Shown here: in pieces, positions 31,357 to 49,660 of the stretch
How the letters are laid out: every line of letters begins with the position of its first letter
How positions within the stretch are numbered: the stretch's first letter is position 1
Source of the DNA: Micavibrio sp. UBA7657
Lineage (GTDB): Bacteria; Pseudomonadota; Alphaproteobacteria; Micavibrionales; Micavibrionaceae
Length of the DNA: 64,000 nt
Reading direction: 5' to 3'
Assembly: GCA_002483465.1 (NCBI GenBank)
Contig: DLHX01000018.1
Span: 5,285 to 69,284 of the forward strand
Made by a program: the position numbers and the translations under genes
Notes under the pieces: generated by a model
Told to the model about the DNA's origin: nothing
The model's database searches: none
The model's input: only the letters and a program-made list of their open reading frames with translations

Positions 31357-31370
31357 GTGTTGATATAGTG

Positions 31371-32222
31371 TCAGATATTGCTGCCGGCCTTGGTACTTGC
31401 CTGGTAGTCCTGCGCCGCCCCGGGCGCGGGTTCAACGATCATACGGCTCTCTTCGCGTAGATCAACAGAAAGAATATCTTTTTCTAATAACCCCTCTTTT
31501 TCCACGGCTTCCGCCAGTTTCCGGAGGGCCAGCCCCGTTTCCCCTTCGGGCAGTTTGGCGGTAATATCATCCCGGAACACAAGATCCCAGCGCCGCCCGC
31601 CGATCCATTTCGCGGCCTTTACGCGGGACATGATCTGCGGCTCGGCCTCGAGGTTTTTGACCAGTTCGGGCGCACGCTCCGGTGCCCCCTCGCCCATAAC
31701 AATGACCAGATTTTTAAACCGCCCGAGATTTTCGCGGGTGATCGGCTTACCCTTCTCGTCCAGCAACTCCAGCGTGCCGCCTTCCTGCCAGAGCGCCAGC
31801 GGCTTTTTCTCCGTCAGCCCGACATAAATCGTATCCGGCAGGCGGCGCTCGACATGCGCATCGCGTATCCAGTTAATTCTTTTGATCTGCTCCTGCGCTG
31901 CAACGGGGTCGAAAGCGAATAACGGGTCGCCTTTTTCTGTAGCGATGATCGCTTTCAGTATCTCCGGGTTCGTATAAACACGTCCCTCGACCATAATATT
32001 CTGCACGGAAAAACCAGCTTCCGAAGTTCCCTCATGCACCTGCGCCGCCAGCCAGTCGCCGGTCCGGGTCGCGCTGCCGCTCAGGAAAAACCACGACCCT
32101 GCCCAAAAACTCAGACCCGCAATCGCCAGCGCGATGCCGAAACGTTTGAGCCATGGCATCAGCACGGAAAGCGGCCCCTTGCGCCGCTTGTTACCAGTGA
32201 ATTTGCTTTTATAGGTGGCCAT
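31371..32222 (-). CDS. ftsQ: cell division protein FtsQ
   Basis: Single transmembrane helix plus POTRA-like domain. Position between ddl and ftsA. Confidence 0.85.
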   Translation of the reverse strand: MATYKSKFTGNKRRKGPLSVLMPWLKRFGIALAIAGLSFWAGSWFFLSGSATRTGDWLAAQVHEGTSEAGFSVQNIMVEGRVYTNPEILKAIIATEKGDPLFAFDPVAAQEQIKRINWIRDAHVERRLPDTIYVGLTEKKPLALWQEGGTLELLDEKGKPITRENLGRFKNLVIVMGEGAPERAPELVKNLEAEPQIMSRVKAAKWIGGRRWDLVFRDDITAKLPEGETGLALRKLAEAVEKEGLLEKDILSVDLREESRMIVEPAPGAAQDYQASTKAGSNI

Positions 32223-33454
32223 TACAGCTGTCTCCGGAACAGACGCGCATCGACAGGGACAGAATCTTTCGGGAAATTTCTTTTTCTGCGTTCTTCAATC
32301 GCCTCTTCAATCAGCGCCGTCAGCAATTCCGAGAACAGTTTCGGCTCGGGTGCGGCCTCCCACAGGAAATAACCGATCGAGCCGGGCCACGGGTTGACTT
32401 CGTTCAACCAGATTTCGCCGCTCTTGGAATCACCGATAAAATCAATACGCGGCGCGCCGGTGCCATCCAGACCTTCATACATCTGCACCGCCCAGCGGCG
32501 GATATTTTCCTCGGTTTTCGCATCGAGCATCGGGTTGATTTCGCGTGTGAGCGACAGCATGCCCTGGCTTGCCTGTCCGGGCTGCTTGCTACCGCCCTTT
32601 TGGCCTTTTGTGCCGCCAGATAAATATTTCTTTTTGAAATCGAGCAGCTCTTCGTTGTTTTTCGGACGTTCGATGGCCGATGTCTTCACGCTGCCGAATG
32701 CCTTCGTCACCGCGACATTATATTCGACCATATTGGGAACGAACGGCTCAACCACCGCCACCTCGTCAAATTCAAAAATCGACGGCAGGCAGGCCGCGAT
32801 TTCTTCGGCGTTCGTTGCCTTTGCTACGCCGATGGAGCTGCCCAGATGCGCGGGCTTAACAATGCATGGAAAACCTATATTTTTTTCGCGCAGCGTCTCT
32901 TCAATTTTGCCGCGCGCGATCATGTACCCTTCTGTGGGCCGTTTCAGCACCGCGCAAGGCAGAACCGGGATGCCAATCCCCTGCATCGCTTTTTTCGTCG
33001 CAGCCTTGTCCATCAGGACGGATGAAGCCAGCGTTCTCATGCCTGCATAGGCGACGCCCGCCATTTCAAACAGGCCCTGCAGATTGCCGTCCTCACCAAA
33101 CAAGCCATGGAAGGATGGAATGGCCACATCGAATTCAATCGTCTTGCCGCCGCTGAACAGCCCGGTTTTCTTGGGCAGCAACCGCCCGGTTTTCCCCGCC
33201 GTGACATCCAGCGTCACTTCCTGCGTCTGCGCCCGGCTGTTGGCATGGAGCATATAATTCTCGCGCTTCCGCAAAACATCGCCGGTCAGCCACACGCCGT
33301 CCGGGGTGATATAGACCGGGAAGGCTTCGAACTTCGGATCTATCGCCCCCAGAATCTGCAGACCGGTCACCACCGAGACATCATGCTCGGGCGAGCGGCC
33401 GCCAAAAAACACGGCGATGCGTTTTTGAGATTTTATTCCTTTTTGGGATTGCAT
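32222..33454 (-). CDS. ddl: D-alanine--D-alanine ligase, long DdlA-like form with an extended loop
   Basis: IAVFFGGRSPEHDVSVVTG, FHGLFGEDGNLQGLFEMAGVAYAG and NEVNPWPG. At 410 aa it carries a Gly/Lys/Gln-rich insertion (SGGTKGQKGGSKQPGQASQG). Confidence 0.85.
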   Translation of the reverse strand: MQSQKGIKSQKRIAVFFGGRSPEHDVSVVTGLQILGAIDPKFEAFPVYITPDGVWLTGDVLRKRENYMLHANSRAQTQEVTLDVTAGKTGRLLPKKTGLFSGGKTIEFDVAIPSFHGLFGEDGNLQGLFEMAGVAYAGMRTLASSVLMDKAATKKAMQGIGIPVLPCAVLKRPTEGYMIARGKIEETLREKNIGFPCIVKPAHLGSSIGVAKATNAEEIAACLPSIFEFDEVAVVEPFVPNMVEYNVAVTKAFGSVKTSAIERPKNNEELLDFKKKYLSGGTKGQKGGSKQPGQASQGMLSLTREINPMLDAKTEENIRRWAVQMYEGLDGTGAPRIDFIGDSKSGEIWLNEVNPWPGSIGYFLWEAAPEPKLFSELLTALIEEAIEERRKRNFPKDSVPVDARLFRRQL

Positions 33455-33505
33455 GATTTTACTATTCGTCCGGGCGTGCTATGACAGTTACGGCAACATT
33501 AAAGC

Positions 33506-34306
33506 ATGAAAAACATAGTGATTAAAGATAATTTGGCCACGCCAGTGACGTCACTCATAAGCTCTGAAAGCCTTGGGAAAAAGGATTCTCCCGTGGTGGT
33601 CTGGGGGCATGGCTGGGGCCAGAGCCGCAAGGCCTTCCGTCCGCTCGCTGAAGGGCTTGAATCCTTCGGCACCCATATCCTTGTTGATTTTCCCGGTTTC
33701 GGTGACAGCCCCATGCCGCTCGAACCGTGGGGCACAGCCGAATACGCCGATGCTGTCGCCGAGTTCCTGAGACAAAATTCAAACGGTCCTGTCATCTGGG
33801 TCGGGCATTCATTTGGGTGCCGTGTGGGCCTGCAACTGGCCTCGCGCCACCCTGATCTCATCTCGGGGCTCTTCTTAATTGCCGGTGCAGGATTAAAGCG
33901 TAAGCGCCCGTTATGGCAGGACATTTATTTCAAAACGCGCACTCTCGTTTTTAAAGTTTTGAAGAAATTTATTCCTCTCGGCCTGTCCGAAGACTGGCTC
34001 CGCTCCAAATTCGGCAGCACGGATTATAAAAATGCCGGGGCGCTGCGCTCCATCCTTGTCAAAACCATTGGCGAGGATTTATCAGATGTGGCGCGAACCG
34101 TTTCCTGCCCCACAGCATTAGTGTACGGCATGAACGACACCGAAACCCCTCCCGAAATCGGACAGAGACTGCAGAAACTCATCCCCGGCGCTGAACTGAC
34201 CATTCTTCCCGGGCAGGACCACTACAGCGTCCTCGGCGAAGGACGCCACCAGGTCGCGCCTTTACTCAAGCAATTCATGGAGAGAATAGATGCCCGTATT
34301 CGCTAG
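33506..34306 (+). CDS. alpha/beta hydrolase
   Basis: VVWGHGWGQS, DFPGFGDSP, and the nucleophile elbow GHSFGC. The 3' end overlaps the next gene by 17 nt. Confidence 0.8.
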   Translation: MKNIVIKDNLATPVTSLISSESLGKKDSPVVVWGHGWGQSRKAFRPLAEGLESFGTHILVDFPGFGDSPMPLEPWGTAEYADAVAEFLRQNSNGPVIWVGHSFGCRVGLQLASRHPDLISGLFLIAGAGLKRKRPLWQDIYFKTRTLVFKVLKKFIPLGLSEDWLRSKFGSTDYKNAGALRSILVKTIGEDLSDVARTVSCPTALVYGMNDTETPPEIGQRLQKLIPGAELTILPGQDHYSVLGEGRHQVAPLLKQFMERIDARIR

Positions 34307-35882
34307 CACACTCGGCCTTCTTTTGGTTTATGCCGCATGGCTTGCCTTCGCGACGAAGCGCACATCGACTTATCTCCATATCTACCAGCAGGAGGAATAT
34401 GACAGCGGGCGGTTCCTGCGCTGGATGGCGCGTAGTGGCGCCATCGACACGCGCTTTACGCTCGTCCTTCTCATCATCGACGCTTTCTGGCTGCTGTTTC
34501 CCTCGCCCTGGTACATTTTCCTGTTTTTCATAGCCTTTGCCGCCGCCGCCGTCCTTGAGGACGATCCGCGTCATGCCGCGAAAAAGAAACTTGTCCTCAC
34601 GCCGCGCGCACAGCGTATTCTGTTCCTGACGGTTGTGCTTTCCGCCCTGATGGCGACATGGTTCCTCGTCTTTTACTTCCCGTTCTTCTGGATTTTGAAC
34701 GTGCAACTCATCCCGTTCGTCATGCTGGTCGCCAATCTCGCACTCACGCCTTATGAGAATCACGTCCAGAAAAAATACTGGGATCAGGCGCACCGGAAAC
34801 TCGTCGATCTCAAGCCCGTCACGGTGGGTATTACCGGCTCGTTCGGCAAAACATCGGTTAAACATATCCTCGGCCATATCCTGAAAACCCACGCGCCGAC
34901 GCTCATTACACCGGGCAGCGTCAATAGCCCCATGGGCGTGACACGCATCATCCGCGAACAGCTCGAGGACAATCATAAATTCTTTGTCGTCGAGATGGGC
35001 GCTTACGGTCCCGGATCGATCGAACGCCTTTGTCGCCTTGCACCGCCAGACATGGGCATTATCACCGCCGTCGGCCATGCGCATTACGAGCGCTTCAAAA
35101 CCATTGAAACAGTTGCCAAGGCAAAATTCGAACTGGCTCAAGCCGTGCTCGATAAAAAAGGCAAAATTATCACGCACGAAAAACCGCTCGATATCGAATA
35201 CGCGAAAATTAAAACCCGCGAGAACCGCAGCAGCTTCATCATCGTCGGCGAAACGCCGGTAAGCGATGCGATCATTGAGCGCGCCGAACAATTGCCCGAG
35301 GGCCTGCGGGTTTTTATCCGCTGGAACGGCGATAGTTACAGACTGGAGGCGCCGCTTTACGGCCTGCACCACGCGCAGAACATGGCGCTGGCCTTTACTG
35401 CCGCCGTCACCTTGGGTATTCCCGCCGAAAACGCCGTCACCGCGCTCAAATCCGTGCCGCAGATCACGCACCGCCTTGAAGTCAAAAGACCCGGCGACGG
35501 CACGACGCTCATCGACGACGCCTTCAACTCCAACCCTGTCGGCTTCGCCTCGGCGCTCGACCTCCTGCCCGTGCTCGGACGGCAGGGCCGCAAAATCCTC
35601 ATCACGCCCGGCATGGTCGAGCTCGGTGAGGCACACGCTGAAGAGCATGAAAAAATTGGCAAGAAGGCTGGTGAAATCTGCGACGTCATTATCATCGTGC
35701 AGGGCAAGCGCATCCCGACCTTCATGGAGGGCGCGCGGGCGACCGGCAGCACGAAGACCTTCATCGAAGTCGATACGTTCCAGCAGGCGAATGCGTGGCT
35801 TGATCAAAACCGCAAGGACGGCGACGTGATTTTAATTGAAAATGATTTGCCGGATCTTTATGAGCGGAAACTGAAGATCTAG
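34290..35882 (+). CDS. MurF-family Mur ligase with an N-terminal polytopic membrane domain
   Basis: Residues 1-150 hold about four hydrophobic helices. Then come the Mur ligase P-loop GITGSFGKTS, GSVNSPMGV, VVEMGAYGPGSI, AVGHAHYERF, the C-domain DDAFNSNP and PGMVELGE. GGAGAG Shine-Dalgarno. The strand is opposite to the rest of the dcw cluster. Confidence 0.85.
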   Translation: MPVFASTLGLLLVYAAWLAFATKRTSTYLHIYQQEEYDSGRFLRWMARSGAIDTRFTLVLLIIDAFWLLFPSPWYIFLFFIAFAAAAVLEDDPRHAAKKKLVLTPRAQRILFLTVVLSALMATWFLVFYFPFFWILNVQLIPFVMLVANLALTPYENHVQKKYWDQAHRKLVDLKPVTVGITGSFGKTSVKHILGHILKTHAPTLITPGSVNSPMGVTRIIREQLEDNHKFFVVEMGAYGPGSIERLCRLAPPDMGIITAVGHAHYERFKTIETVAKAKFELAQAVLDKKGKIITHEKPLDIEYAKIKTRENRSSFIIVGETPVSDAIIERAEQLPEGLRVFIRWNGDSYRLEAPLYGLHHAQNMALAFTAAVTLGIPAENAVTALKSVPQITHRLEVKRPGDGTTLIDDAFNSNPVGFASALDLLPVLGRQGRKILITPGMVELGEAHAEEHEKIGKKAGEICDVIIIVQGKRIPTFMEGARATGSTKTFIEVDTFQQANAWLDQNRKDGDVILIENDLPDLYERKLKI

Positions 35883-36760
35883 CGCTCCCCAACAATATTA
35901 ATTTCCCAGCGCAGGTTGATGCCAAGCTGTTCCTTTGCGCGGCGGCGAATTTCCTCGCCGAGATTCTCTAAATCGGCTGCAGTAGCATCGCCCGTATTAA
36001 TCATAAAATTCGAATGCATCGGCGACATCTGTGCCCCGCCGATCTTCAATTCGTGACCGCCGACTTTCTGTACGATTTGCCATGCCTTCAATTCGCCGGA
36101 CGGATTGGCAAAAGTCGAGCCGCCGGTTTTCTCGCGAATAGGCTGCGTCTCGTTGCGCTTGGTTTTAATTTCATTCATCCGCGCCTTGACGGTTTCATAA
36201 TCCTCACGCCTGCCCTTGAAAATCGCGCTCGTAAAAACCGCGCCTTTTGGCGGGTCGGTGTGGCGATAGGTCATGTGCAAATCTTCCGGCACAAATTTTT
36301 TGATCTCACCCTGCCGCGTCACGGCGTTGATTCCGGTTAAAACATCCTTCACTTCCGTGCCGTATGCGCCAGCATTCATGCGCAGCGCGCCGCCGACGCA
36401 TCCCGGGATGCCCGATAAAAATTCCAGCCCGCCGATGCCTGCTTTCACCGCCGCCGCTGCAACCGATCCGTTCAGCGCGCCCGCGCCCGCCTCGATATAA
36501 TCGCCAAGGACTTTAATCTCCGAAAATTCCTTGCCGAGCTGGATGGTCAAGCCGCGAATGCCGCCGTCGCGGATGATGGTGTTGGCGAGCCCGCCGAGCA
36601 CGGTCACTTCACCGTCATGCTCTTTCAAAAATTGCGCGAGTTCATCGGCGTGAGCCGGGCGCAACAACTGGTCCGCATTGCCGCCGCAGCCGAACCAGCT
36701 TTCTTTGCCGAGGGGAAAATTTTCAAGAACCTGACCAAGCATCTGCTCTTTATTCATCAT
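35879..36760 (-). CDS. murB: UDP-N-acetylenolpyruvoylglucosamine reductase
   Basis: MurB FAD-binding and C-terminal motifs (..WFGCGGNAD.., GGLANTIIRDGG, GSTFANP). The ATG at 36760 is preferred; the track's 36832 start would overlap the upstream ORF by 83 nt. Confidence 0.9.
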   Translation of the reverse strand: MMNKEQMLGQVLENFPLGKESWFGCGGNADQLLRPAHADELAQFLKEHDGEVTVLGGLANTIIRDGGIRGLTIQLGKEFSEIKVLGDYIEAGAGALNGSVAAAAVKAGIGGLEFLSGIPGCVGGALRMNAGAYGTEVKDVLTGINAVTRQGEIKKFVPEDLHMTYRHTDPPKGAVFTSAIFKGRREDYETVKARMNEIKTKRNETQPIREKTGGSTFANPSGELKAWQIVQKVGGHELKIGGAQMSPMHSNFMINTGDATAADLENLGEEIRRRAKEQLGINLRWEINIVGER

Positions 36761-37199
36761 TGATGACTGCATATTCACCATCGAGTGTGAAATTGGCGTT
36801 TTCTTTAAGAGTGCAATCGTTTTTATACCCACTCTTTAAATGTGGCCTTAAGCCTTTCTTCTCAATTTTTATAACTATTTTATTTTTTATGAAAGCAAAA
36901 GCCCACAATCCATCATCATCCACATTAGGCAATTTATTTTCAAAATCCCCTAAATAAGATTGCGAATTCTTAATGATTTCCTCAGGATCTGAATAAGGGG
37001 ATAAAATACAAACTGTATCCCAATCATAATTTGTAACTTCGGCCAGATACACTTTTGAGGAAGATTTAAATTTTTCGTTCGTTTTATTCCAAAAACTATT
37101 CGTTAGTTCTGAAATTATAATGGAAAGAAAAAATCCGGCAATCATTAAACAAGGAACACCAAACAATATTCCAAATAGCCATAGAAAAAAAATTCTCAT
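36750..37199 (-). CDS. hypothetical membrane-anchored protein (AT-rich insertion)
   Basis: N-terminal hydrophobic anchor FFLWLFGILFGVPCLMIAGFFLSIII plus a roughly 115-aa soluble domain. Two sampled lines are 28% and 35% G+C. The start shares a base with the murC stop (TAATG). Confidence 0.6.
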   Translation of the reverse strand: MRIFFLWLFGILFGVPCLMIAGFFLSIIISELTNSFWNKTNEKFKSSSKVYLAEVTNYDWDTVCILSPYSDPEEIIKNSQSYLGDFENKLPNVDDDGLWAFAFIKNKIVIKIEKKGLRPHLKSGYKNDCTLKENANFTLDGEYAVINDE

Positions 37200-38641
37200 T
37201 ACGCCGCGTTGCCTTTGGAACGAGCGAAAAGCGGCTCAAGCTCGCCGGGGAGCGCGTAGGCCCAATAGGTGATATCCCCCGCCCCTAAACAAATCACGTA
37301 ATCGCCCGGCTGCGCCATTGACGCCACGCGCCGCGCGAGCTCTTCCTTGCCGGAAAGCGGCAACACATGACGGTGGCCGTGTTTTCTAATGCCTTCAATC
37401 AGCGAATCCCGGCTCGCGCCGTCAATCGGCTGCTCGCCCGCCGTATACACATCGGCGACGATCACGCTGTCCGCTTCATTAAAACAGGTGCAGAAATCCT
37501 CGAACAAATCATGGAGCCTCGTAAATCTGTGCGGCTGCATGACGGCGATCACGCGCCCGCCATTTTCCGCCACCATCATACGCGCGGTTTTTAAAACCGT
37601 TTCAATTTCCACCGGGTGATGCGCGTAATCGTCAATCACCGTCACGCCCGCCGCCTCGCCGGTTTTCGTGAAACGGCGTTTGACGCCCGTAAACCCGGCC
37701 AACGCTTTTTTCATCACCGGCGGCGCCACCTGCATCTCGCAGGCAATCGCCAGCGCAACGAGCGAATTCTGCACATTATGATGTCCCGGCATCGGCAGAT
37801 GCACATCCTTCAGAACCAATTCCTTATTTTTGTTCAGCCTTGGCGCAAAGGTCACATCGAATAAACTTCCATTCGCACCGCTGCGGATATTCGACGCGTG
37901 CACATCGGCTTGCGGGTTGAAACCGTATGTAATCACTTTACGGTCCTGGATCGTGGGAATGAGCGCCTGCACTTCCGGGTGGTCCATGCACAAAACCGCA
38001 TAACCATAGAAGGGAATGTTATGAATGAACTGGCGGTAGGCTTCCTTCACCTTCTCGAAATCACCGTAATGGTCAAGGTGTTCGGGGTCGATGTTCGTCA
38101 CCACCGCAACCGTCGCCGGCAAATGTGTGAAGGTACCGTCGCTCTCGTCGGCCTCCACCACCATCCACTCGCTTTTGCCGAGGCGGATGTTGTTGCCGTA
38201 GGCATTAACGATGCCGCCATTGATGACGGTCGGATCGAACCCTGCGATTTCCATCATCTGGCCGACCATCGATGTCGTCGTCGTTTTTCCGTGCGTGCCC
38301 GCCACCGCGACCGCTGATTTCAATCTCATCAGTTCCGCCAGCATCTCGGCGCGGCGCACGATGGGAATATTTTTTGCGCGCGCAGCCTTCAATTCTGGAT
38401 TGTCGTTTTTTACGGCGGAGGAAATCACCACGGCGGTGACGTCGCCGATATTCTTCGCGTCATGGCCGATGAAAATTTTAATGCCGCGCTCTTTTAATCT
38501 TTTAACATTTGCGCTCTCGGATAGATCCGACCCCTGCACCGCGTAACCAAGCACGGATAAAATCTCGGCAATCCCGCTCATGCCGATGCCGCCGATGCCG
38601 ACGAAATGCAATGTGCCGATGTCTTCGGGCAAGCCCTTCAT
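37199..38641 (-). CDS. murC: UDP-N-acetylmuramate--L-alanine ligase
   Basis: [33 protein letters not shown] Shine-Dalgarno. Confidence 0.96.
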
Positions 38642-38675
38642 GGAGATTCCTTATTGCCTCTAAAATTCCTTTACT

Positions 38676-38700
38676 GTCACCCCCGCGAAGGCGGGGGTCC
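38676..38700. repeat. REP-like hairpin GTCACCCCCGC-GAAG-GCGGGGGTCC
   Basis: 7-bp G/C stem with a 4-nt loop. Exact (25/25) reverse complement of 53173-53197 inside ileS. Confidence 0.85.
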
Positions 38701-38707
38701 GGCAAAG

Positions 38708-39454
38708 TTACATAAATTTGCGCTTTTTGAAAACCCGAACATCCAAAGCTGTAAGATTAAACCACTCACCATTGAGATGTTTATCTTTGAATCTGTTATG
38801 CCAGTAAGTTTCTATTCCACTCGGATCATCTGTGCGTATGCTATGAATAGGTTCAATTTTTTCAGGCAATTGTATGCCAATCTCGTACTGGCGCCGATCA
38901 AGTGCCTTAGTACACCCAATTTTATAATTCTTTCCTGATTTCATAAGATAAACAAAACCAAAATCTTCCTGATCCCTAAAATCCTCAACATCCTCTTCTA
39001 CTGAAGTGGTATGCCCTGTTATTAGAGGCTCACAAATTTCTAATATGTCTTGGTACTCGTCAGGAGTTTGACGACAAAAATTCTTTACCGCCTCTATCAT
39101 GCTCTTTTTTTTGCCGAGGTTTTTAGCGAAGGTAGCGTAATCGGGAAAATGTTCATTACGAGCAGATTCTCGTTTGAATTCCACCTTCATAGGAAAATGG
39201 CCTAATGTTCTGATGAATGTAATAAGTTTTTCAATAAGAATATCTTGGCCATACGCTCCTTGAAATTGATTGGGCGTATAACCAGCTTCTGCCTGAACAT
39301 CGCTCCAACGATTCCAATCATTCCAAGCTTTTCCCAACCAATCATCTCGCTTGATGCCGGTAGCCTGAAAGAATTGGCCCATTCCTAAAGGCTTGCCACC
39401 ATTTTTTTCAGCGGTTCTTTTGATTTCGCTCAGAATGTGCTGTTTTTTATCCAT
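38708..39454 (-). CDS. GIY-YIG superfamily (T5orf172/MUG113-like) nuclease with two N-terminal homing-endonuclease-associated repeats
   Basis: C-terminus GFVYLMKSGKNYKIGCT..LDRRQYE...IHSIRTDD....E..WHNRFKDKHLNGEWFNL. The N-terminal half is two roughly 55-aa repeats (ILSEIKRTAEKNGGKPL..W..W......AGY and ILIEKLITFIRTLGHFPM...F). Two sampled lines are 33% and 38% G+C. Confidence 0.75.
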   Translation of the reverse strand: MDKKQHILSEIKRTAEKNGGKPLGMGQFFQATGIKRDDWLGKAWNDWNRWSDVQAEAGYTPNQFQGAYGQDILIEKLITFIRTLGHFPMKVEFKRESARNEHFPDYATFAKNLGKKKSMIEAVKNFCRQTPDEYQDILEICEPLITGHTTSVEEDVEDFRDQEDFGFVYLMKSGKNYKIGCTKALDRRQYEIGIQLPEKIEPIHSIRTDDPSGIETYWHNRFKDKHLNGEWFNLTALDVRVFKKRKFM

Positions 39455-39503
39455 CGCCGGAATATAGCATTATGGATAAAAATCTCAAATCTCTTAAATT
39501 GCC

Positions 39504-39528
39504 GGATGCCCGCCTGCGCGGGCATGAC
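39504..39528. repeat. REP-like hairpin GGATGCCCGC-CTGC-GCGGGCATGAC
   Basis: 8-bp stem ATGCCCGC/GCGGGCAT with a 4-nt loop. Same GGA..../....TGAC termini as the other copies, inverted relative to 38676-38700. Confidence 0.8.
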
Positions 39529-39556
39529 AATTATTGCACTTTAACGATTAAAGGGA

Positions 39557-40663
39557 TCAATCCCCCCAGCCACTCACCATCGCGGTGACCAGGTTGCCGA
39601 GCTTGCGCGCGGCGTCCGGTTTCCCGCAGCTTCTCGATTTTTCGGCCGCCCGGAAGAGAATGGAGGGATTTTGCAGGAAAGTCTCGATTCTTGCAAGCAG
39701 GGCCTCGGTGGTGAAACCGCCCTCTGCCATGACCCAAGCCCCGCCTGCATCGGCCACGGTTTCGGCATTCATTTTCTGCTGCTGGTCCTTATGATGTGGA
39801 TACGGCACGAAAATTGCCGGGCGGCCCGCCGTGGTGACTTCGGCCACCGTGCTGGCGCCCGAGCGGCCTATAATAAGGTGGGCTTTGGACAATTCCCCAG
39901 CCACATCGTCGAAGAATGACCTCAGATCGCACTTGATGCCCGCAACTTCGTATGTCCGGCGCACGGATTCAAGATCGTCATTCCGGCATTGCTGCACGAC
40001 ATATAGACGTTGACGGTATTCGGCTGAAAGTTTTGCCAGAGTCTGCGGCACGATATCGCTGAATACTTTTGCGCCCAGCGATCCGCCCATGACAAATATC
40101 CTGAGCGGCGTTTCGTGACCGAGATTGGGATAAGGCTGGGTGTAGAGCGCCGCGATGTCGGGACGTACCGGGTTGCCGGTGACAACCGAGCGCATGCGTT
40201 CGCTGTCATCCAACCCCTGAACCACGGGCAGCGAGAGCGCGATGCGCGCCGCCTTGCGCGCAAGGAATGCATTCGCATTACCGATGATGGCGTTCTGCTC
40301 ATGGATAATTGTTGGCACGCCCATTTTCTGCGCGGCATAAACCGCCGGGACAGATGGATAGCCGCCGAAACCGACCACCAGTTTCGGTTTCAGTTTCATA
40401 ATCAGCATCAGCGCCTGCCCGAACCCCATACCGAGATTGGCCGCACCCTTGATCTTGCCCATCGCGCCCGCCCCGAACGTACCGGAGCGCAGGACATGCG
40501 CGGGAATTTCACCGAACATATGCTGGTATTTCATGCCGCGCTCATCTGTAGCCAGTTCGATGCGGAACCCCCGCGATCGAAGGTCTTCCGCAAGCGCCTG
40601 CGCGGGCGTCATATGCCCACCCGTGCCGCCACTGCTGAGAAGAATGAGATTATCCTGTTTCAT
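39557..40663 (-). CDS. murG: undecaprenyldiphospho-muramoylpentapeptide beta-N-acetylglucosaminyltransferase
   Basis: GGTGGHMTPAQALA and the C-terminal GASTVAE motif. Confidence 0.95.
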   Translation of the reverse strand: MKQDNLILLSSGGTGGHMTPAQALAEDLRSRGFRIELATDERGMKYQHMFGEIPAHVLRSGTFGAGAMGKIKGAANLGMGFGQALMLIMKLKPKLVVGFGGYPSVPAVYAAQKMGVPTIIHEQNAIIGNANAFLARKAARIALSLPVVQGLDDSERMRSVVTGNPVRPDIAALYTQPYPNLGHETPLRIFVMGGSLGAKVFSDIVPQTLAKLSAEYRQRLYVVQQCRNDDLESVRRTYEVAGIKCDLRSFFDDVAGELSKAHLIIGRSGASTVAEVTTAGRPAIFVPYPHHKDQQQKMNAETVADAGGAWVMAEGGFTTEALLARIETFLQNPSILFRAAEKSRSCGKPDAARKLGNLVTAMVSGWGD

Positions 40664-41832
40664 GGCTGGTTCCCTGCCTCCAGAACACGCGCTTTTGATG
40701 ACATGCCTGCACGCGCGACGCTGCCCCGCGCCTGACGACGTGTCAATGCAAGCACCGCGCCCATTGAAAATCCGAGCGAGAGAATGGACGAGCCGCCGTA
40801 ACTGATGAAAGGCAGAGTCATGCCTTTCGCTGGCAGAATATTCATCGCCGAGCCCATATGCACCAGCGCCTGCAAACCGAACATCGTCAGCAAACCGCCG
40901 ACCGCCAGCACCGCGAACATATTGTCACTGGTCGTCAGGCGGTTAAGACCGCGCCACATGATAAATCCGAAAACCGCTATGATGATCAATACGAACCACA
41001 ATCCCATTTCCTCGCCCGCGACGGAAAAAATAAAATCGGCGTGTGCATCTGGTAAACCGCTTTTGACCGTACCCTGTCCCGGGCCGGTGCCTGCGATGCC
41101 GCCGTTCTGGAAGGCTTCCAGCGAGCGATCCACTTGATAGTTGTCGCCGCTTTCTGGTTTGAAGAATCTATCGACGCGGTAACGCACGTGTTCGAAGAAG
41201 AGATAAGCGCATCCCAAGCATGCCGCGCCGATAGCGCTAAAAATCGCGAGGATGCGGAAGCGAAAACCGGCGAGGAAAATCTGCGACGCCCAGATGCAGG
41301 TAACAACAATCGTCATACCGAGATCGGGCTGCAGCATCAATAATCCCACCGTCAGGAAGCAAAGGCCTGCCGCGATAAGGTTGCCCGGGAATTTCGCGTT
41401 CTCCTTCTGCCGCGACATGAACCATGCCGCGACAATGGCGAAAGACGGCTTCGCGAGCTCGCTGGGCTGTAGCGAAAAACCAAACAGATGAATCCAGCGC
41501 TGCGCGCCCTTGATCTCCACCCCGTGAAACAGCACGACGATCATAGCCGCAAGACTGGCAATGAATAGAATACTTGCCGCGCGCCAGATCATGCGCGGAC
41601 TGAGCATAGAAATACCCATCAGCAAGCCAAGCGCAGGCAGCAGCATCATGAGATGGCGTTTGAGGAAATGGTATGAATTGAGGCCAAGTGTTTCCGCGAC
41701 CGGCGGGCTCGCCGTACTGACCAGCACAATGCCGAAAACAATCAGCAGGATAAACGCCGCGAGCAGGCCGCGATCCACCGTCCACCACCAGCGGCCAAGG
41801 AAAGACGTATCCGTTCTTGAGAACATGCTCAT
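40660..41832 (-). CDS. ftsW: SEDS lipid II flippase/polymerase FtsW
   Basis: FtsW/RodA family protein between murD and murG. Confidence 0.93.
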   Translation of the reverse strand: MSMFSRTDTSFLGRWWWTVDRGLLAAFILLIVFGIVLVSTASPPVAETLGLNSYHFLKRHLMMLLPALGLLMGISMLSPRMIWRAASILFIASLAAMIVVLFHGVEIKGAQRWIHLFGFSLQPSELAKPSFAIVAAWFMSRQKENAKFPGNLIAAGLCFLTVGLLMLQPDLGMTIVVTCIWASQIFLAGFRFRILAIFSAIGAACLGCAYLFFEHVRYRVDRFFKPESGDNYQVDRSLEAFQNGGIAGTGPGQGTVKSGLPDAHADFIFSVAGEEMGLWFVLIIIAVFGFIMWRGLNRLTTSDNMFAVLAVGGLLTMFGLQALVHMGSAMNILPAKGMTLPFISYGGSSILSLGFSMGAVLALTRRQARGSVARAGMSSKARVLEAGNQP

Positions 41833-43148
41833 GCCGCCGCACTCTCCTCAAGGCCATTTACAATATTTGTAAAAACATCGCCACGTTCCTCGTAAGACGA
41901 AAACTGGTCGAACGACGCGCAGGCAGGCGCCAGCAGAACCGTCGCAGGCGCATTTTTCTGCGCGGCCACATGCGCCGCGCGCACGGCTGCATCCAGCGTT
42001 TTGTTTTTATGATGCGTAACATTGTTCTTTTGCATCCACGCAGCGAAGTCATCCATCGCTTCGCCGATCAGGAATGATTCCCGCACGCGCCCCGCCAGCT
42101 TCTCAAGCCCGCTCAGCCCGCCCTCTTTCGGCCTGCCCCCGGCGATCCAGTAAATATTGTCGTAGCTGGCCAATGCTTTCGATGCCGCCCCGGCGTTCGT
42201 CGCCTTGCTGTCATTAATATATGTAACATTATTAATAGTGCGCACCGGGAACTGGCGGTGCGGCAGGCCGGGAAAAGTCCGCATTCCAGCAAAAATCTCT
42301 TCTTCTGACAATGCCGCCGCGCTGCAGGCATGATAAGCAGCAATTGCGTTCTGCAGGTTGTGTTCACCCTTCAGCATCATATTGTCTTTAATTTTTTCAA
42401 CCTCGTCTTTCACCGAAAATGGAATGACGAGACGATGGCCCGCAGCCTTGAGCTGCTTCATGATTTTGCTTGAAGGATCATCATCGGAGCTAATGATAGC
42501 CACACCCTGTCCCTCAAACATTCGTGCTTTGGCTGCGGCGTAATTATCAAGATTGCCGTGGCGATCAATATGATCGGGCGTAATGTTCAGCAGCACAGAA
42601 ATTTCGGGACGGAATTTCGGACACAGATCAAGCTGGTAGGACGAGAGCTCCAGCACCACGAATGGCTTGTTTTTAATTTCAAGATCAAACACCGGCACGC
42701 CGATATTGCCTCCCATCACGGCCGGTCGTCCGCTTGTTTTAATAATGTGATGAATGAGCGCCGTCGTCGTCGATTTTCCGTTCGTGCCAGTAACCCCGAT
42801 CGTGCGGATATTGTCGTAGACGCGGGCAAACAGCTCGACATCGCAAATCACCTCTGTACCTGCAACCCTCGCAGCCTTTACCACGGAATGCGGCGCGGGG
42901 TGATTAAGCGGCACGCCGGGTGCTAATAATAAAAACGCGCATGGTTTTAAATTCGCCTCGTAAAGCTGCTCAATGGTCGCGCCAAGCGCGGCGGCTTTGC
43001 CCTGCGCCTTTTCATCGTCGTCCCAGGCGATGATCTCTGCGTCCACGCTTTTCAGCGCCCGTATAGTCGACAGGCCTGAGCGCGCAAGACCGAAGACCGC
43101 AATCGGGCGGCCTTTCAGTGTTTGCAGATACGCGGCAAGTTCTTTCAT
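41829..43148 (-). CDS. murD: UDP-N-acetylmuramoylalanine--D-glutamate ligase
   Basis: VFGLARSG N-terminal Rossmann fold, GVTGTNGKSTT. Confidence 0.94.
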   Translation of the reverse strand: MKELAAYLQTLKGRPIAVFGLARSGLSTIRALKSVDAEIIAWDDDEKAQGKAAALGATIEQLYEANLKPCAFLLLAPGVPLNHPAPHSVVKAARVAGTEVICDVELFARVYDNIRTIGVTGTNGKSTTTALIHHIIKTSGRPAVMGGNIGVPVFDLEIKNKPFVVLELSSYQLDLCPKFRPEISVLLNITPDHIDRHGNLDNYAAAKARMFEGQGVAIISSDDDPSSKIMKQLKAAGHRLVIPFSVKDEVEKIKDNMMLKGEHNLQNAIAAYHACSAAALSEEEIFAGMRTFPGLPHRQFPVRTINNVTYINDSKATNAGAASKALASYDNIYWIAGGRPKEGGLSGLEKLAGRVRESFLIGEAMDDFAAWMQKNNVTHHKNKTLDAAVRAAHVAAQKNAPATVLLAPACASFDQFSSYEERGDVFTNIVNGLEESAAA

Positions 43149-43158
43149 TATGATTTAT

Positions 43159-44244
43159 TCATCGCAATTTTAGCGTCGACAGGCCGATCAGCGCGAGAAT
43201 GAAAGCAATAATCCAGAAACGGATAACAACCGTAGGCTCTGACCATCCCTTTTTTTCGAAATGGTGATGGATGGGCGCCATGGCAAAGACGCGCTTACCC
43301 GTCAGTTTGAATGATACAACCTGAATAATCACCGAGACTGTCTCGAGCACGAACACGCCGCCGATAATCGCGAGCACCAGTTCGTGCTTCGTGATCACAG
43401 CAATGGTACCGAGCACACCACCCATCGCCAACGAACCCGTATCGCCCATAAAAATCATTGCCGGCGGCGCGTTATACCAGAGGAAGCCCATCGCCCCACC
43501 GATCAGCGCACCGCACAAGACCGCCAGTTCCCCAGTTCCCGGCACATAAGGAACATTGAGATATTCCGCGAAATCAGCGCGGCCCACGAGATAAGCGATC
43601 AGGCCGAAGCACCCGGCAGCAATCGCCACAGGTACAATCGCAAGACCGTCGAGGCCATCCGTCAAATTCACCGCATTGGATGAACCTACAACCACGAACA
43701 GCGCCCACGGCGCAAAAAACCAGCCGACATTAATAAAAAGCTCCTTGAAGAAAGGAATGGCGATATGAGTGCTGAGTGTATCAGGCATCGTCACCATAAT
43801 GCCGATCGTAGCGCTGAGGCCGATGATGAATTGCAAAAGAAGTTTCAGTTTTCCCGGCAGGCCCTTCGTATTTCTCTTGGTCAGCTTTAAATAATCATCG
43901 CCGAAACCGATCAAGCCGTATCCCACCATCACCAGCAGCGCATACCAGACAAAATTATTCGTCAGGTCGGCCCAGAGAAGTGTCGAGATCGAAACGGAAA
44001 TCAAAATCATCAGACCACCCATAGTCGGCGTGCCCGCTTTGGCAAAATGCGTTTGCGGTCCGTCGGTTCTGATGGGCTGCCCCTCTTTTTGTTTTTTCTT
44101 AAGCCAGCGGATCATCGCGGGCGCAATCAAAAAACAGATTACCAGCGCCGTCATGATCGCGCCGCCGGTTCTGAACGTGAGATAACGGAACAGGTTGAAG
44201 AAAAGAAATTCGTCGGCGAAGGGCGTCAGTAAATTATAAAGCAT
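43159..44244 (-). CDS. mraY: phospho-N-acetylmuramoyl-pentapeptide transferase
   Basis: [36 protein letters not shown]. The ATG at 44244 (residue 49 of the track ORF) is preferred; the upstream 48 aa are Arg/Cys-rich and overlap the preceding ORF. Confidence 0.95.
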
Positions 44245-44670
44245 AAGCTGTCTTTCCGCTTGGCATGACCCGCAGCGCCTCGATTGCAATTTTCTGGCGC
44301 GCTTTTTTGACGAACACGATGAAATCTCCCGGCGCCAACACCTCCGGCACGATCTTGTCCGTGCCCGGACTGCGTAAAATCTGGCCAATCACGTGATAAA
44401 CGTGGGAAACCGGCGTAATCGTCTTTGTCGTATAAACAACGTCGAGATTACCGATTTTACTCGGCATTGCCAACCGGGTCTTTTTAATGTTTTTGCGGCC
44501 GTCATGATCCGGCAGATAACCCTCCAGCATGGCTGTTTGCCGCCCGCCCCCGAGATCGATCAGGTTCCTGACCCGGAACACCGCGCAGGGCTCCTCGCGT
44601 TGCCTTTTGACACTGACGGTCACCGTCGGCGTCTTCAGGAAACTCCAGAAAGAGCGGTTATCAACGTTCA

Positions 44671-44674
<4 letters not shown>
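44234..44674 (-). CDS. hypothetical 146-aa protein occupying the murF slot; possible degenerate MurF C-terminal domain
   Basis: ATGA overlap with the murE stop and an 11-nt overlap with the mraY start; host-like composition. There is weak resemblance to MurF domain 3 ([18 protein letters not shown] vs ..LIDDSYNANP.SM.AAL..L; [11 protein letters not shown]....IEAL vs PGDVVLVKGSR..ME.VVEAL). Confidence 0.55.
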
Positions 44675-46111
<1,437 letters not shown>

Positions 46112-46119
<8 letters not shown>

Positions 46120-47830
46120 GGCCCTTCACCGTCACATATTGTTTCAACGATGCCGATAAATCTGTTTCTTCGTTCGCTTTTTCAGGCTTGATGCCAAGAA
46201 TGGCGGCCATTGAGGCCACAACCCGCGCCACTGCCGGCGCACCAACCCAGCCACCTGTTGCATATCCAAAACTTTTCTTCGTCGGCTTCGGCCCGTCGAT
46301 CACGATAAATATCGCGTATTCAGGTTTCTCAACCGGGAACACGCCAACGAAAGATGACAGTAACTGTGACTGGTCGTAGCCGCGTCCGCTCTGCTGCTCC
46401 GCCGTTCCCGTCTTGCCGCCGACGCGATAACCCGGCACATCGGCCTTCTCGCCGGTGCCCTCGGTTACAACAAGCCGCAACAACTGGCGCATGCGGTGGA
46501 CGGTCTGCGCCGAAACCACCCGTAGCGATTCATCCTGCGCGTTTTCCTCCGCCTTTTTATTGAGCACAAGATGCGGTGCCACGAGATAACCGCCATTGAC
46601 GATGGAGGACACTGCTGCCGTCATTTGCAGAGGTGTCGTCGCTATGCCGTGGCCGTATGATGCAGTTAAAGTGTTAATCTCGCGCCATGGGTGCGGCACC
46701 TGCGGCTTGCCCACCTCAGAAATTTCAAGATTCATTTTCTCGGTCAGGCCAAGATCGTCGTAAAAATCCTTCAGCCTGTCGGTGCCGACCGCCTGTCCCA
46801 TCATCGCCGCGCCGATATTTGACGAATACATGAACACTTCGGGAATCGTCAGAATACGATCCTCGGCGTGGTAGTCATTGATCGTGAATCTTCCGCGCTT
46901 GATCGGCTCGCGCGCATCGAAACTGGCGTTCATGCCGACATTGTGCGTCTCAAGAAACGCCGCGGTTGAAAAAATCTTGAAAACCGACCCCAGTTCATAC
47001 GTCCCGAGACTGACCCTGTTGAACATTTTCCTGCTGGTTTCATCAATTGCGCCATTGGGATCGAAATCCGGCAGCGACACCCCCGCGAGGACTTCGCCTG
47101 TATTCACATTCATTATAATCCCCGCGCCGCCCGCCGCGTGGAAATCATCGATCGCCTTGTCCATCTCCCGGCGCAGGGCGTGCTGTAACCTGACATCGAG
47201 CGTCAGCGCAACCGGCTTGCCTTCCAAGAGCAGTTGGTTAAAGCTTTTCTCGATCCCGGCGAGTCCCTCGCTCCCGGTGCCTGCATAACCAACGAAATGC
47301 GACGTTAGCGCTCCTTGCGGATAAACGCGGCGGTCTTCGTATTTAAACGCCAACCCCGGCTCGCCGAGTTTCAGTACTTCATGCTGCTCCTGCGGCGTCA
47401 GGCTGTATTTCAAATGAACGAAGCGCCCGCCTTTTTGAAACCGGCGCAGCGTCTCACCATATTCGAGATCGGGAAAAATCCGCGCGAGATTTTCCGCCGC
47501 CTTCTCCGCGTCGGAAATCAAATGCGGATCGGCATAGAGCGAGGCGGTCTTGATCGTGGTCGCCAGCAATTCTCCGTTGCGATCCGTGATGTCGGCACGC
47601 GTAACACCGCTTATAGCTGCCGCCTCTTCCTGCACCACGCCGTTATCAACCAACGCCGCCGGTTTTCCCTGAATGACCATTAAATCTACTGCGCGCGCTG
47701 CAAGAAACATATAGGCGAAAATGAAACATGCGCCCATCAGGACAAGCCGCCCGCGCGCGAGGTCAAGCGAGGAGCTTTTCTCGCCGATTAGCTTGATGGC
47801 ATGGCGGCGCGCCTGTTTTAGAAAAATCAT
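46112..47830 (-). CDS. ftsI: penicillin-binding protein 3 (divisome transpeptidase)
   Basis: SVFK, SSN and KTGTAE motifs plus an N-terminal anchor. Confidence 0.93.
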
Positions 47831-48264
47831 TCGCTGCCCTCTTTTGAAACTTGCTTCAGAAGATCGTCGAGGGATTTTTCTTTAGGGGGATTTTTTATAG
47901 GCGGCGGGGTGGGTTTTGCGGAGGGAACAGGCGTGAAGGAAACCGGTTGCGCCTGCATGGGGGATTCCACAGGCGGCTCGGTTTTTGCGGGAATTTCCGT
48001 GCCATCATTGGCGATATGGCCCGGGTCGGGAGGGGAAAGCTTGAGATATTGCCGCGCCAGCGTCTCGAGGCGGCCGGGGCTGTTGAGGAACGCCCACTCG
48101 GTTTTCAGGATACGTATGGAATCATTCTCGTGGTTAACATCAGCTGTGATGGCGGCAAGCTCAGCCTCGCTCTGCTGAACGTTTTGAGACGTTTGCAACA
48201 GCATCGATCCGGCCAGCACGGCCAGCGCGTAAATGAAAACCGTGCGAAGGCGGATTTTTTTCAT
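47827..48264 (-). CDS. ftsL: cell division protein FtsL
   Basis: Small bitopic protein with a coiled-coil and a Pro-rich tail, between rsmH and ftsI. Confidence 0.7.
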   Translation of the reverse strand: MKKIRLRTVFIYALAVLAGSMLLQTSQNVQQSEAELAAITADVNHENDSIRILKTEWAFLNSPGRLETLARQYLKLSPPDPGHIANDGTEIPAKTEPPVESPMQAQPVSFTPVPSAKPTPPPIKNPPKEKSLDDLLKQVSKEGSE

Positions 48265-49190
48265 GCCTCCCTCCTTATCCCAGCGCGCAGTTTCGCCGAG
48301 CGCGCACGTGGATTGTCACGGGCCTCTTCTTCCGAAGGCTGCACGGATTTTTTTGATTTTATGTCGAAAACCGGCGCTGTTTTTTCCGGCTGCACGAGCG
48401 AATGCCTTGAAACACCCGGCGCATTGCCGGATTTCTCGCGTAAGCAGTCCTTGACCATGGAATCTTCCAGCGAATGGAACGAAACAATAATCACGCGTCC
48501 ACCGGGATTAAGGATTTTTTCCGCTGCCCCGAGCGCGCGCTCCAGCTCGCCCAGCTCATCATTCACGACAATCCGCAACGCCTGGAAGGTGCGCGTTGCC
48601 GGGTCGATGTCATCGCCGCTGCGCGGCACGACCGAACGCACAACATCAGCCAGATCCGATGTCGTCTCAAATTTTTTCTCGCGGCGGCGCTCGATGATTG
48701 TTTTTGCGACACGGCGCGAGTGACGTTCCTCGCCATATTTATAAATTAAATCAGCCAGCTCACGTTCAGGCATCGAATTCACGATATCCGCCGCTGTTTT
48801 TCCACCGCTTGTATCCATGCGCATATCCAGCGGCCCGTCGAAACGGAAAGAGAACCCACGTTCCGCCTGGTCGAGCTGCATCGAGGAAACGCCAAGATCG
48901 AGAACGAAACCATCGACCTTTTCAAATCCCGCGCCTTTCAGCAGATCTTCCACATCGCCGAAGCAACCATGAAGGAAGACCAGCCGCTCGCCATATTTCG
49001 CTTTCAGGGTTTTTGCACGTTCCTGCGCGGATGGATCACGGTCAATGGCAATCACCGTGCAATCGGCGCCGTCGAGAAAAGCCTGCGTGTAGCCGCCTGC
49101 GCCGAACGTGCCGTCCACATAAACCTCGTCGTCTACGGGTTTCAGGTGGGCGAGCACTTCGTTCAGCATGACGGGAACATGGCTCATCAC
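48261..49190 (-). CDS. rsmH: 16S rRNA (cytosine1402-N4)-methyltransferase
   Basis: HVPVMLNEVL..VDGTFGAGGY..DLGVSSMQLD. Confidence 0.95.
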   Translation of the reverse strand: MMSHVPVMLNEVLAHLKPVDDEVYVDGTFGAGGYTQAFLDGADCTVIAIDRDPSAQERAKTLKAKYGERLVFLHGCFGDVEDLLKGAGFEKVDGFVLDLGVSSMQLDQAERGFSFRFDGPLDMRMDTSGGKTAADIVNSMPERELADLIYKYGEERHSRRVAKTIIERRREKKFETTSDLADVVRSVVPRSGDDIDPATRTFQALRIVVNDELGELERALGAAEKILNPGGRVIIVSFHSLEDSMVKDCLREKSGNAPGVSRHSLVQPEKTAPVFDIKSKKSVQPSEEEARDNPRARSAKLRAGIRREA

Positions 49191-49660
49191 GCACCGCCTT
49201 TCGGGATCGTCAGGCCCTGCACTTTAACCTGCGTGCGCGCATCCTCGCGGCGCTTTTTGAATGTCTTCGGGTTCCAGATCTGGAATTTTTTACCGAGCCC
49301 GACAAAATTCGCGCTTCCCTCGATCTGCGCGAAATCCATCAGCTCTTTCGGCAACACGATACGGCCATCGCCGTCGAATGGAAGCTGAACACTGTCGCCG
49401 AACACTGCGGTCGCGAGATCGTCCTGCAAATCAGAAAATAAATCGAAATGATCCAAACGCTGGCCGATCTCTTCCATGAACGACCATGAAAAACCCTCAA
49501 GCGCGGCGTGATGGTTCGAGCGGAACACGACAACGCCCTGGAAATTTTCCGACGCCAACGCCGAGCGGAATTGCGCCGGGACCGAAACGCGGCCCTTCTT
49601 GTCCACCTTGTTCAGATATGTCGAAAGAAACAAAGCCATGCCCGAATTCGTAACCTTCAT
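49187..49660 (-). CDS. mraZ: transcriptional regulator MraZ
   Basis: Duplicated SpoVT/AbrB-like halves (DKKGRVSVPAQFR and DGDGRIVLPKEL). Confidence 0.93.
   Translation of the reverse strand: MKVTNSGMALFLSTYLNKVDKKGRVSVPAQFRSALASENFQGVVVFRSNHHAALEGFSWSFMEEIGQRLDHFDLFSDLQDDLATAVFGDSVQLPFDGDGRIVLPKELMDFAQIEGSANFVGLGKKFQIWNPKTFKKRREDARTQVKVQGLTIPKGGA

Follow-up and report, generated by a model that had tools for sequence, protein, structure and literature searches.

A predicted stand-alone remnant of MurF domain 3 between murE and mraY in the cell-wall gene cluster of a Micavibrio genome

MurF is usually seen as a universal, soluble, three-domain and essential enzyme and as an antibiotic target, and in Mur ligases the amino acid or dipeptide to be added binds to the third domain. 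The MurC to MurF ligases and MraY are made at similar levels in Escherichia coli, the Mur ligases are reported to interact with each other, and MurC, MurE, MurF and MraY to co-localise with MurG (PMC10214165). In this study, we analysed a stretch of 64,000 nucleotides (nt) from Micavibrio sp. UBA7657 (assembly GCA_002483465.1, contig DLHX01000018.1, positions 5,285 to 69,284 of the forward strand; the whole stretch is referred to as the window), in which an open reading frame (ORF) of 146 amino acids (aa) is the sole gene between murE and mraY, the canonical position of murF. A preliminary description of the window had proposed that this ORF is a relic of the C-terminal domain of MurF, and the comparisons reported below suggest that the relic is best regarded as a MurF-derived pseudoenzyme consisting of domain 3 alone. 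The searchable literature yielded no account of a MurF pseudoenzyme, of a MurF reduced to domain 3 or of a MurF with a membrane anchor, and searches for Micavibrio with murF, or for murF with transmembrane helices and the division and cell wall (dcw) cluster, returned nothing relevant.

The slot and its boundaries comprise the following features:

44234..44674, minus strand: 146-aa ORF, predicted to be a stand-alone, non-catalytic relic of MurF domain 3 (ORF listing, homologues, hhalign, BLASTP, dN/dS)
44234..44244, minus strand: 11-nt overlap, ATGCTTTATAA, of the 3' end and stop codon of the relic with the mraY start (read from the sequence)
44683..44687, minus strand: Shine-Dalgarno (SD)-like GGGAG, 8 nt upstream of the relic ATG and within the 3' end of murE (read from the sequence, putative in function)
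44671..46119, minus strand: murE (NF001124, 586 bits; TIGR01085, 440 bits; all three Mur ligase Pfam domains)
43159..44244, minus strand: mraY, 361 aa, with its ATG at 44244 (PF00953, MraY_sig1)

The coordinates given in the preliminary description were confirmed from the sequence, i.e. a slot ORF of 146 aa flanked by the murE stop at 44671 and the mraY start at 44244, with an ATGA junction on one side and the 11-nt overlap on the other. At the ATGA junction the ATG of the ORF (44674-44672) overlaps the murE stop codon TGA (44673-44671), while its own stop codon TAA lies at 44236-44234; a second in-frame ATG is present at 44671, and homologues begin there (MNVDNR...). A longer version of mraY (43159-44388, minus strand, with a TTG start, 409 aa and a 155-nt overlap with the relic) is not the gene, and the ATG at 44244 is taken as the real start because all mraY homologues are 360-361 aa in length. 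This ATG is preceded only by a weak SD-like GGAAAG, and a promoter and terminator scan around the ORF identified no such site on the coding strand nearby. The identical 11-nt mraY overlap is present in related loci L001, L004, L005, L007, L013, L014 and L019 and in the genome encoding protein P0196 (see below); it fixes the C-terminus of the family as ..[HY]A[LV]*, and a terminal xAL/xAV is common to its short and long forms. The composition of the ORF is host-like, as had been claimed, with a GC content of 53.5% and a third-codon-position GC content (GC3) of 66.7%, inside the ranges of the neighbouring dcw genes (52-59% and 59-71%, respectively). The ORF has no Pfam match at an expectation value (E) of 1 or below and no NCBIfam match at E≤0.01, and the source databases label its homologues as 'hypothetical protein' only.

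The relic was related to MurF by profile and pairwise comparison. Profile-profile comparison with hhalign of 41 short forms of the family with 11 near-canonical MurFs gave a probability of 99.1% and an E of 1.2e-18, which is far beyond chance, and placed ORF residues 26-140 on MurF residues 370-491. BLASTP of the ORF against the canonical alphaproteobacterial MurF P0207 returned 34% identity over 118 aa (E 1e-10, pairwise). P0207 scores 543 bits on the MurF model NF010693 and possesses the canonical motifs (GITGSVGKTGTKEM, IDESYNASP and GDMLELG), and it was also matched (E 2e-4) by the short-family profile in a library of 1.84 billion proteins. With E values down to 1e-21, this profile aligns to the last ~110 aa of proteins that are 347-491 aa in length, and the long proteins matched are MurF by NF010693 (543, 324, 251, 211, 207, 174, 90, 61 and 42 bits). 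Additionally, many C-terminal fragments of canonical MurF with PF02875 are 32-38% identical to the relic. Searched against the six-frame translation of the 64,000-nt window, a profile of near-canonical alphaproteobacterial MurFs returned the relic as its top match (E 2e-13), above murE and the other Mur ligases, and no other murF. Homology to the Mur ligase C-terminal domain superfamily (PF02875) was thus found via hhalign and BLASTP, with the PF02875 model itself below threshold. Furthermore, the relic family shares the alphaproteobacterial MurF signatures IDxG.GR..A.L, LA.P....DLVYT, IVPDVL.PGD and VEALR. By its sequence, the relic is therefore the remnant of the lineage's native alphaproteobacterial-type murF, from which domains 1 and 2 (~300 codons, including the P-loop) have gone; the proposal of a relic of MurF domain 3 thus gains support from hhalign, from BLASTP to P0207, from the profile search of 1.84 billion proteins and from the intermediates in the same slot that are described below.

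The alignments also define the register between the two proteins. A degenerate 12-residue stretch of the ORF at the position of DDSYNANP corresponds to MurF ITLIDESYNASP, a 25-residue segment to MurF AAFKVLALIDPGRGGRRIAVLGDMLELG, a 15-residue segment to MurF LALPxxAAxVDLVYT and a 17-residue segment (...IAIEALRVM) to MurF IVPDVLxPGDVVLVKGS...VVEALRxL. Of the two blocks that had earlier been aligned by eye, the second was placed correctly (L.PGDVVLVKGS..VVEAL), while the first was off-register, as it corresponds to MurF ..LALIDPGRGGRRIAVLGDMLELG and not to DDSYNANP, a shift by one structural element. The domain-3 motifs DDSYNANP, GDMxELG and KGS(R) are lost in the ORF and in all short forms; VKKARQ stands in for VKGSxGS, and VKRQREEP is among the other substitutes for the substrate-side motifs of domain 3. 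The ORF is also devoid of a P-loop (GxxGKT/S), does not have the three-domain architecture of MurF and fails the curated MurF cut-offs (TIGR01143/NF010693). The reported absence of the P-loop domain and of the catalytic signatures hence holds at the aligned positions, and the relic is incapable of ligase activity because DDSYNANP, GDMxELG and KGS(R) are lost and the P-loop domain is gone.

A comparison of synteny with relatives, which had been suggested as a means of finding intermediate states, identified long forms (here termed pseudo-MurFs) in the same murE-x-mraY slot (L013, L017/L018, L019 and the P0196 genome). In L013, P0151 (434 aa) is flanked by murE and mraY and overlaps the latter by 11 nt as in the window, P0158 (428 aa) is located directly upstream of mraY (L017/L018), P0175 (437 aa) occupies the slot on a 2.33-Mb contig (L019), where it co-occurs with the membrane-anchored MurF discussed below, and P0196 (414 aa), whose P-loop is dead and whose domain 3 is near-canonical, occupies it on a 746-kb contig of GCA_041443045.1. 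The relic profile recognises the C-termini of the pseudo-MurFs with E values between 1e-21 and 1e-7. Together these proteins form a graded series, in which canonical MurF (491 aa) is followed by forms with a dead P-loop, forms of ~425 aa and forms of 356-360 aa, and the 146-aa stub stands at the end. Members of the first stage (P0196-P0203 and P0206) combine a dead P-loop with a near-canonical domain 3, in which IDESxxASP, LGDMLxxG and VKGS are kept. At the second stage (~425 aa) the Mg-binding EMG...AHxExF region and the domain-3 motifs are also lost and domain 1 is strongly conserved, domain 2 being degenerate in the long forms of this stage (P0151, P0158 and P0175; about 425-437 aa). The third stage (356-360 aa) is characterised by a further 45-residue deletion, and the fourth is the domain-3-only protein of this window. 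The P-loop, Mg-binding Glu and His motifs are present in 0/14 and 0/6 members of the two long pseudo-MurF groups, respectively, and domain 3 persists at every stage of the series. No description of such full-length pseudo-MurF proteins was found in the literature.

The retention of domain 3 could be taken to indicate a ligand sensor, which would bind D-Ala-D-Ala or a UDP-MurNAc-peptide and tune MraY or the membrane-anchored MurF to the precursor supply. Such a function would follow from the known role of domain 3 in binding the incoming amino acid or dipeptide, and the early pseudo-MurFs, which keep near-canonical domain-3 motifs while their P-loops are dead, suggest that selection acted on domain 3 first. 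However, the substrate-side motifs of domain 3 are replaced in the ORF and in all short forms, and a sensor is considered quite unlikely.

To describe the conservation of the relic, homologues were collected by protein and contig searches. Fourteen homologues (142-153 aa, 67-99% identity) were identified in alphaproteobacterial metagenome-assembled genomes (MAGs), and the profile search of the 1.84-billion-protein library (cluster representatives) yielded 76 clusters at 50% identity, ~31 of which are complete short forms of 142-171 aa. All related loci that were retrieved, among them a Micavibrio sp. assembly and a 'Rhodospirillales' MAG, have the relic in the murE-mraY slot, and the mraY overlap is kept wherever the called coordinates show it; profile scans of contigs provided four loci in genome contigs and one in metagenome contigs, and the taxonomic breadth of the family is that of the protein searches and record names. 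Ratios of non-synonymous to synonymous substitution (dN/dS) were calculated by the pairwise Nei-Gojobori method for the window versus seven relatives, and amounted to 0.05-0.28 over the whole relic, compared to 0.05-0.25 for murE, 0.05-0.19 for murD, 0.04-0.23 for the gene of the membrane-anchored ligase and 0.02-0.07 for mraY. The ratio stays at or below 0.28 in loci where synonymous sites are near saturation (dS 1-2). Purifying selection on the relic is as strong as that on murE, and the relic is a genuine conserved protein-coding gene, being neither a chance ORF nor a decaying pseudogene because of the spread of its homologues and a dN/dS matching that of the neighbouring genes. The relic thus displays both descent with loss of catalytic residues and purifying selection, as expected of a pseudoenzyme.

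A decaying pseudogene or annotation artefact, i.e. a chance ORF left behind after murF was lost or moved, would be consistent with the lack of Pfam and NCBIfam matches and with the 'hypothetical protein' label of the source databases, yet the ORF is intact at dS 1-2 with a dN/dS of at most 0.28, a single frameshifted or truncated copy was seen in total (L012/P0009, 123 aa) and the family spans dozens of clusters at 50% identity, all of which renders this explanation very improbable. In the copy concerned (L012, 10001-10432, P0009) the relic is called as 123 aa while tblastn still aligns its full length, and the short call may be due to a frameshift or assembly error in that MAG. As a separate observation, nucleotide identity to the two closest relatives (L010 and L009) peaks at ~44080-44830, which covers the murE 3' end, the relic and the mraY 5' end, with values of 0.89-0.97 as opposed to roughly 0.7-0.9 in the flanks; no peak is seen against L011. 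In the same two relatives the dS of the relic is 0.21-0.25, versus 0.45-1.5 in neighbouring genes. The peak could represent a recombination tract or a constraint at the RNA level.

The coupling of the relic to both neighbours raises the question of whether the ORF merely acts as a spacer that delivers ribosomes from murE to the mraY start, its peptide being inert. The family retains the overlaps with both neighbours, the only SD-like sequence ahead of the mraY ATG is the weak GGAAAG, no promoter-like site was found near the ORF, and the xAL terminus and the K/R/E/G-rich tail are explained by the mraY start and the purine-rich sequence upstream of it; the C-terminal xAL and basic tail of the family are indeed by-products of the mraY overlap. 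Conversely, a spacer does not need amino-acid conservation, and yet low dN/dS values (0.05-0.28) extend over the whole ORF, an alignment of 15 relic sequences contains 50 invariant columns that extend far from the overlaps, the motifs IVPDVLAPGD and GRQTA and the N-terminal R..W..LK persist down to 24-40% identity, and length is held at 142-171 aa in ~31 divergent clusters. An inert spacer is therefore regarded as unlikely.

The window encodes a second MurF-related protein, together with a putative partner:

34290..35882, plus strand: 530-aa membrane-anchored MurF-type ligase (PF08245, PF02875; TIGR01143; PDB matches; transmembrane segments; motifs)
33506..34306, plus strand: alpha/beta hydrolase (PF00561, PF12697; weak EstV/BioH-like matches)

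The best NCBIfam match of the ligase is murF TIGR01143 (E 4.5e-64, 216.9 bits, below the cut-off of 288.6; the profile match starts at position 65), compared to 1.7e-4 for MurT and 5e-3 for PgsB, and its best PDB matches are all MurF, led by 4QDI (E 1.5e-32). Residues 1-153 comprise ~5 hydrophobic transmembrane helices, which have no Pfam family and stand in place of domain 1, whereas the central and C-terminal catalytic motifs are all intact (GITGSFGKTS, VVEMG, AHYERF, IDDAFNSNP and GMVELG). It is the only motif-complete MurF-type enzyme seen in the window, and is membrane-anchored and without domain 1. In the 120 closest relatives of the ligase (50-96% identity, 519-558 aa) the catalytic motifs are kept in 104-120 proteins, with the P-loop, the His motif and DDxYNxNP each present in 120/120 and the Mg-binding Glu in 119/120, and all 120 possess 3-5 transmembrane segments ahead of the P-loop. 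The hydrolase gene overlaps the start of the ligase gene by 17 nt, and the two form a unit between murB and ddl on the strand opposite to the dcw genes; this pairing is kept in L001, L004, L005, L007, L009-L012, L014 and L016. To our knowledge, no Mur ligase has a hydrolase partner of this kind. The ligase shares 27% identity with the alphaproteobacterial-type MurF, a value that would fit a foreign origin. Thirteen gene clusters extend far enough for the pairing to be judged, and 12 of them combine the ligase with the relic or a pseudo-MurF, namely the window, L001, L004, L005, L007, L009-L012, L014, L016 and L019 (the latter with a long pseudo-MurF); the exception is the P0196-encoding cluster of GCA_041443045.1. 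The idea that the slot ORF is a split-off MurF N-domain of this ligase was ruled out, as all alignments map the ORF to domain 3. A 510-aa ORF antisense to the ligase gene (34275-35807, minus strand) has no Pfam match and should almost certainly be regarded as a shadow of that GC3-rich gene.

Based on its motifs and profile matches, the 530-aa ligase is a probable functional replacement of MurF, and the murF of the slot would have been able to decay because a MurF-type ligase is present in the same cluster. The explanation that we favour, with moderate confidence, is that the native murF was reduced to the relic, catalysis being displaced to the anchored ligase and domain 3 being kept as an adaptor and as the coupling frame for mraY. 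Under this explanation, addition of D-Ala-D-Ala would first have been taken over by the membrane-anchored ligase, which would have released the native murF from catalytic constraint; domain 3 would then have been kept for a non-catalytic role, most likely as a small adaptor docking on MurE, MraY and/or the membrane-anchored MurF, while translation of its reading frame would also bring ribosomes from murE to the mraY start, which has only a weak SD, through coupled termination and reinitiation. The preliminary description had presented two possibilities, an internal deletion of about 300 codons that preserved frame and coupling and a stand-alone domain retained for a role of its own, and the two appear to hold together, since ~300 codons are lost with frame and coupling kept and the remaining domain is under purifying selection.

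The adaptor role is favoured because amino acids are under selection along the entire ORF and not just near the overlaps, and because domain 3 survives each stage of the decay. Reading frames that overlap or lie very close together are a common means of co-producing proteins with a joint task, which, with the similar levels of MurC-F and MraY in E. coli, also favours an adaptor, as do the reported association of Mur ligases and the co-localisation of MurC, MurE, MurF and MraY with MurG. In a stronger version, which appears doubtful though not far-fetched, precursors would be made in a membrane-bound 'metabolon', of which the relic would be a non-catalytic yet obligatory subunit that docks MurE and/or MraY to the anchored MurF. 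The latter would have swapped the UDP-binding domain 1 for a membrane anchor, such that the final cytoplasmic reaction would be physically channelled into lipid I formation at the membrane; a lipid-linked tripeptide could even be the substrate of the anchored ligase.

A number of observations weigh against the displacement of murF catalysis with retention of domain 3 as an adaptor. With regard to descent, the Pfam PF02875 and NCBIfam murF models fail to detect the 146-aa ORF, and a sequence-profile search of the PDB with the short-family alignment alone identified no MurF; a PDB search with a mixed alignment returned nothing relevant, and MurFs in the PDB were matched only by a profile dominated by canonical MurF fragments, which is not independent evidence. 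AlphaFold2 modelling of the relic gave a predicted local distance difference test score (pLDDT) of 58 with 15 sequences and of 71.6 with 36 sequences (predicted template modelling score 0.63), reaching ~89 for residues 30-50. The model with pLDDT 71.6 has strands at residues 28-40 and 129-136, the positions of the first and last helices of domain 3; the homologous MurF segments are helices in the Mur ligase fold. Foldseek of this model against the PDB, proposed earlier as a check, did not recover the Mur fold, in which domain 3 is Rossmann-like (alpha/beta), the best match having an E of 0.28 and template modelling scores being ~0.2 (at most 0.26). The fold of the relic may have changed, or the AlphaFold2 model may be wrong. 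With regard to function, the adaptor role is deduced from conservation, gene order and coupling, the ligase falls below the NCBI murF cut-off and lacks domain 1, so that a MurF substrate is putative for it, and the dcw cluster of GCA_041443045.1, which encodes the early-stage P0196, is without the hydrolase/anchored-ligase pair and without ddl, its murB and ftsQ adjoining. Finally, the search for another murF covered the 64,000-nt window, and a canonical murF may be present elsewhere in the genome.

The failure of Foldseek on the AlphaFold model and of the PDB profile search with the short family to find a Mur ligase would also suit an unrelated small protein that was inserted into the slot and has no MurF ancestry. 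Against this stand the hhalign result (99.1%, E 1.2e-18), the BLASTP match (E 1e-10), the intermediates in the same slot and the host-like composition of the ORF, and such an insertion is the least probable of all explanations considered.

The segment ahead of the region aligned to domain 3 (residues 1-25) is the most conserved part of the short family. A hidden Markov model of the N-terminal 24 residues alone found no significant match in the long forms. On one reading, residues 1-25 would be the retained original N-terminus of MurF (LW[ST]..VT): 32 of 54 short and 18 of 30 long forms have [ILF]W[ST]x6[VIL]T close to the N-terminus, where the background rate is 6e-5 per residue, although this motif was chosen post hoc. 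On the other, they would be collinear with the junction of domains 2 and 3 (NR corresponding to the GR motif), as DNRSFWSF of the relic resembles KNREFLSY of P0197 and RNRTEW of the Streptococcus pneumoniae MurF.

The cluster in which the slot is embedded, as recognised from the ORF list, Pfam matches and synteny in related loci, is:

28030..49660, minus strand: dcw cluster

The gene order is mraZ-rsmH-ftsL-ftsI-murE-[relic]-mraY-murD-ftsW-murG-[foreign insert]-murC-murB-[hydrolase and anchored ligase, plus strand]-ddl-ftsQ-ftsA-ftsZ. The insert between murG and murC (38708-39454, minus strand) encodes a 248-aa protein with MUG113/T5orf172 domains and a weak HNH-repeat match; its GC content is 39% (GC3 34.5%) versus ~54% in the window, and it is without counterpart in every relative, including one with a 98%-identical relic protein. 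It looks like a recent mobile, homing-endonuclease-like insertion within the dcw cluster. A second low-GC foreign insertion (51695-52447, minus strand; GC 36%) encodes a 250-aa HNH endonuclease-domain protein (PF01844) between ileS and msrA; in L001 ileS adjoins msrA directly, and in L014 only ~100 bp without a called gene lie between them.

In the Micavibrio-like clade of Alphaproteobacteria the slot-encoded MurF thus appears to have become a pseudoenzyme, of which domain 3 alone is left in this window, conserved as tightly as murE. If the proposed explanation is true, the locus would represent the displacement of an essential cell-wall enzyme within its own cluster, with the intermediates preserved in related genomes, and would provide natural evidence for a selectable non-catalytic role of the MurF C-terminal domain; it would also bear on the long-debated complex of Mur ligases and MraY and make it testable. 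The anchored ligase would constitute a new architectural class of MurF, in which substrate recognition must differ. Were the metabolon to exist, it would be a natural separation of function, with the MurF scaffold in one protein and catalysis in another. The locus is also relevant to annotation, since the relic is labelled 'hypothetical' by pipelines, which would list murF as absent or out of place.

Compared to described systems, the relic resembles canonical MurF domain 3 (PF02875, NF010693 type) in its homology over residues 26-140 and in its murE-mraY slot, and differs from canonical MurF in being without domains 1 and 2, the P-loop, DDSYNANP, GDMxELG and KGS, and in scoring below every curated model threshold. 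The pseudo-MurFs of related MAGs share the slot and the 11-nt mraY overlap, but keep domain 1 and a degenerate domain 2, whereas the window protein keeps domain 3 only. The degenerate LytM factors EnvC and NlpD activate amidases despite a lost active site, and by analogy the relic may be an enzyme fold without its former active site, kept under selection for a protein-protein role in the pathway, although their fold and pathway step are unrelated to those of the relic, which has no known activation target. The Mur ligase assemblies and the MurE-MurF chimera (Shirakawa et al. 2023, PMC10214165) support an association of MurE with MurF and gene adjacency that reflects complex formation; those systems, however, consist of full-length active enzymes that interact through their central domains, and the relic, lacking a central domain, would need a different interface. 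As regards the 530-aa ligase, MurT (of the MurT/GatD lipid II amidotransferase) and PgsB/CapB likewise possess Mur central and C-terminal domains without a canonical domain 1, and PgsB is, as the ligase, membrane-associated; the ligase differs from both MurT and PgsB in its far better MurF score and in keeping the MurF-type DDxYNxNP motif.

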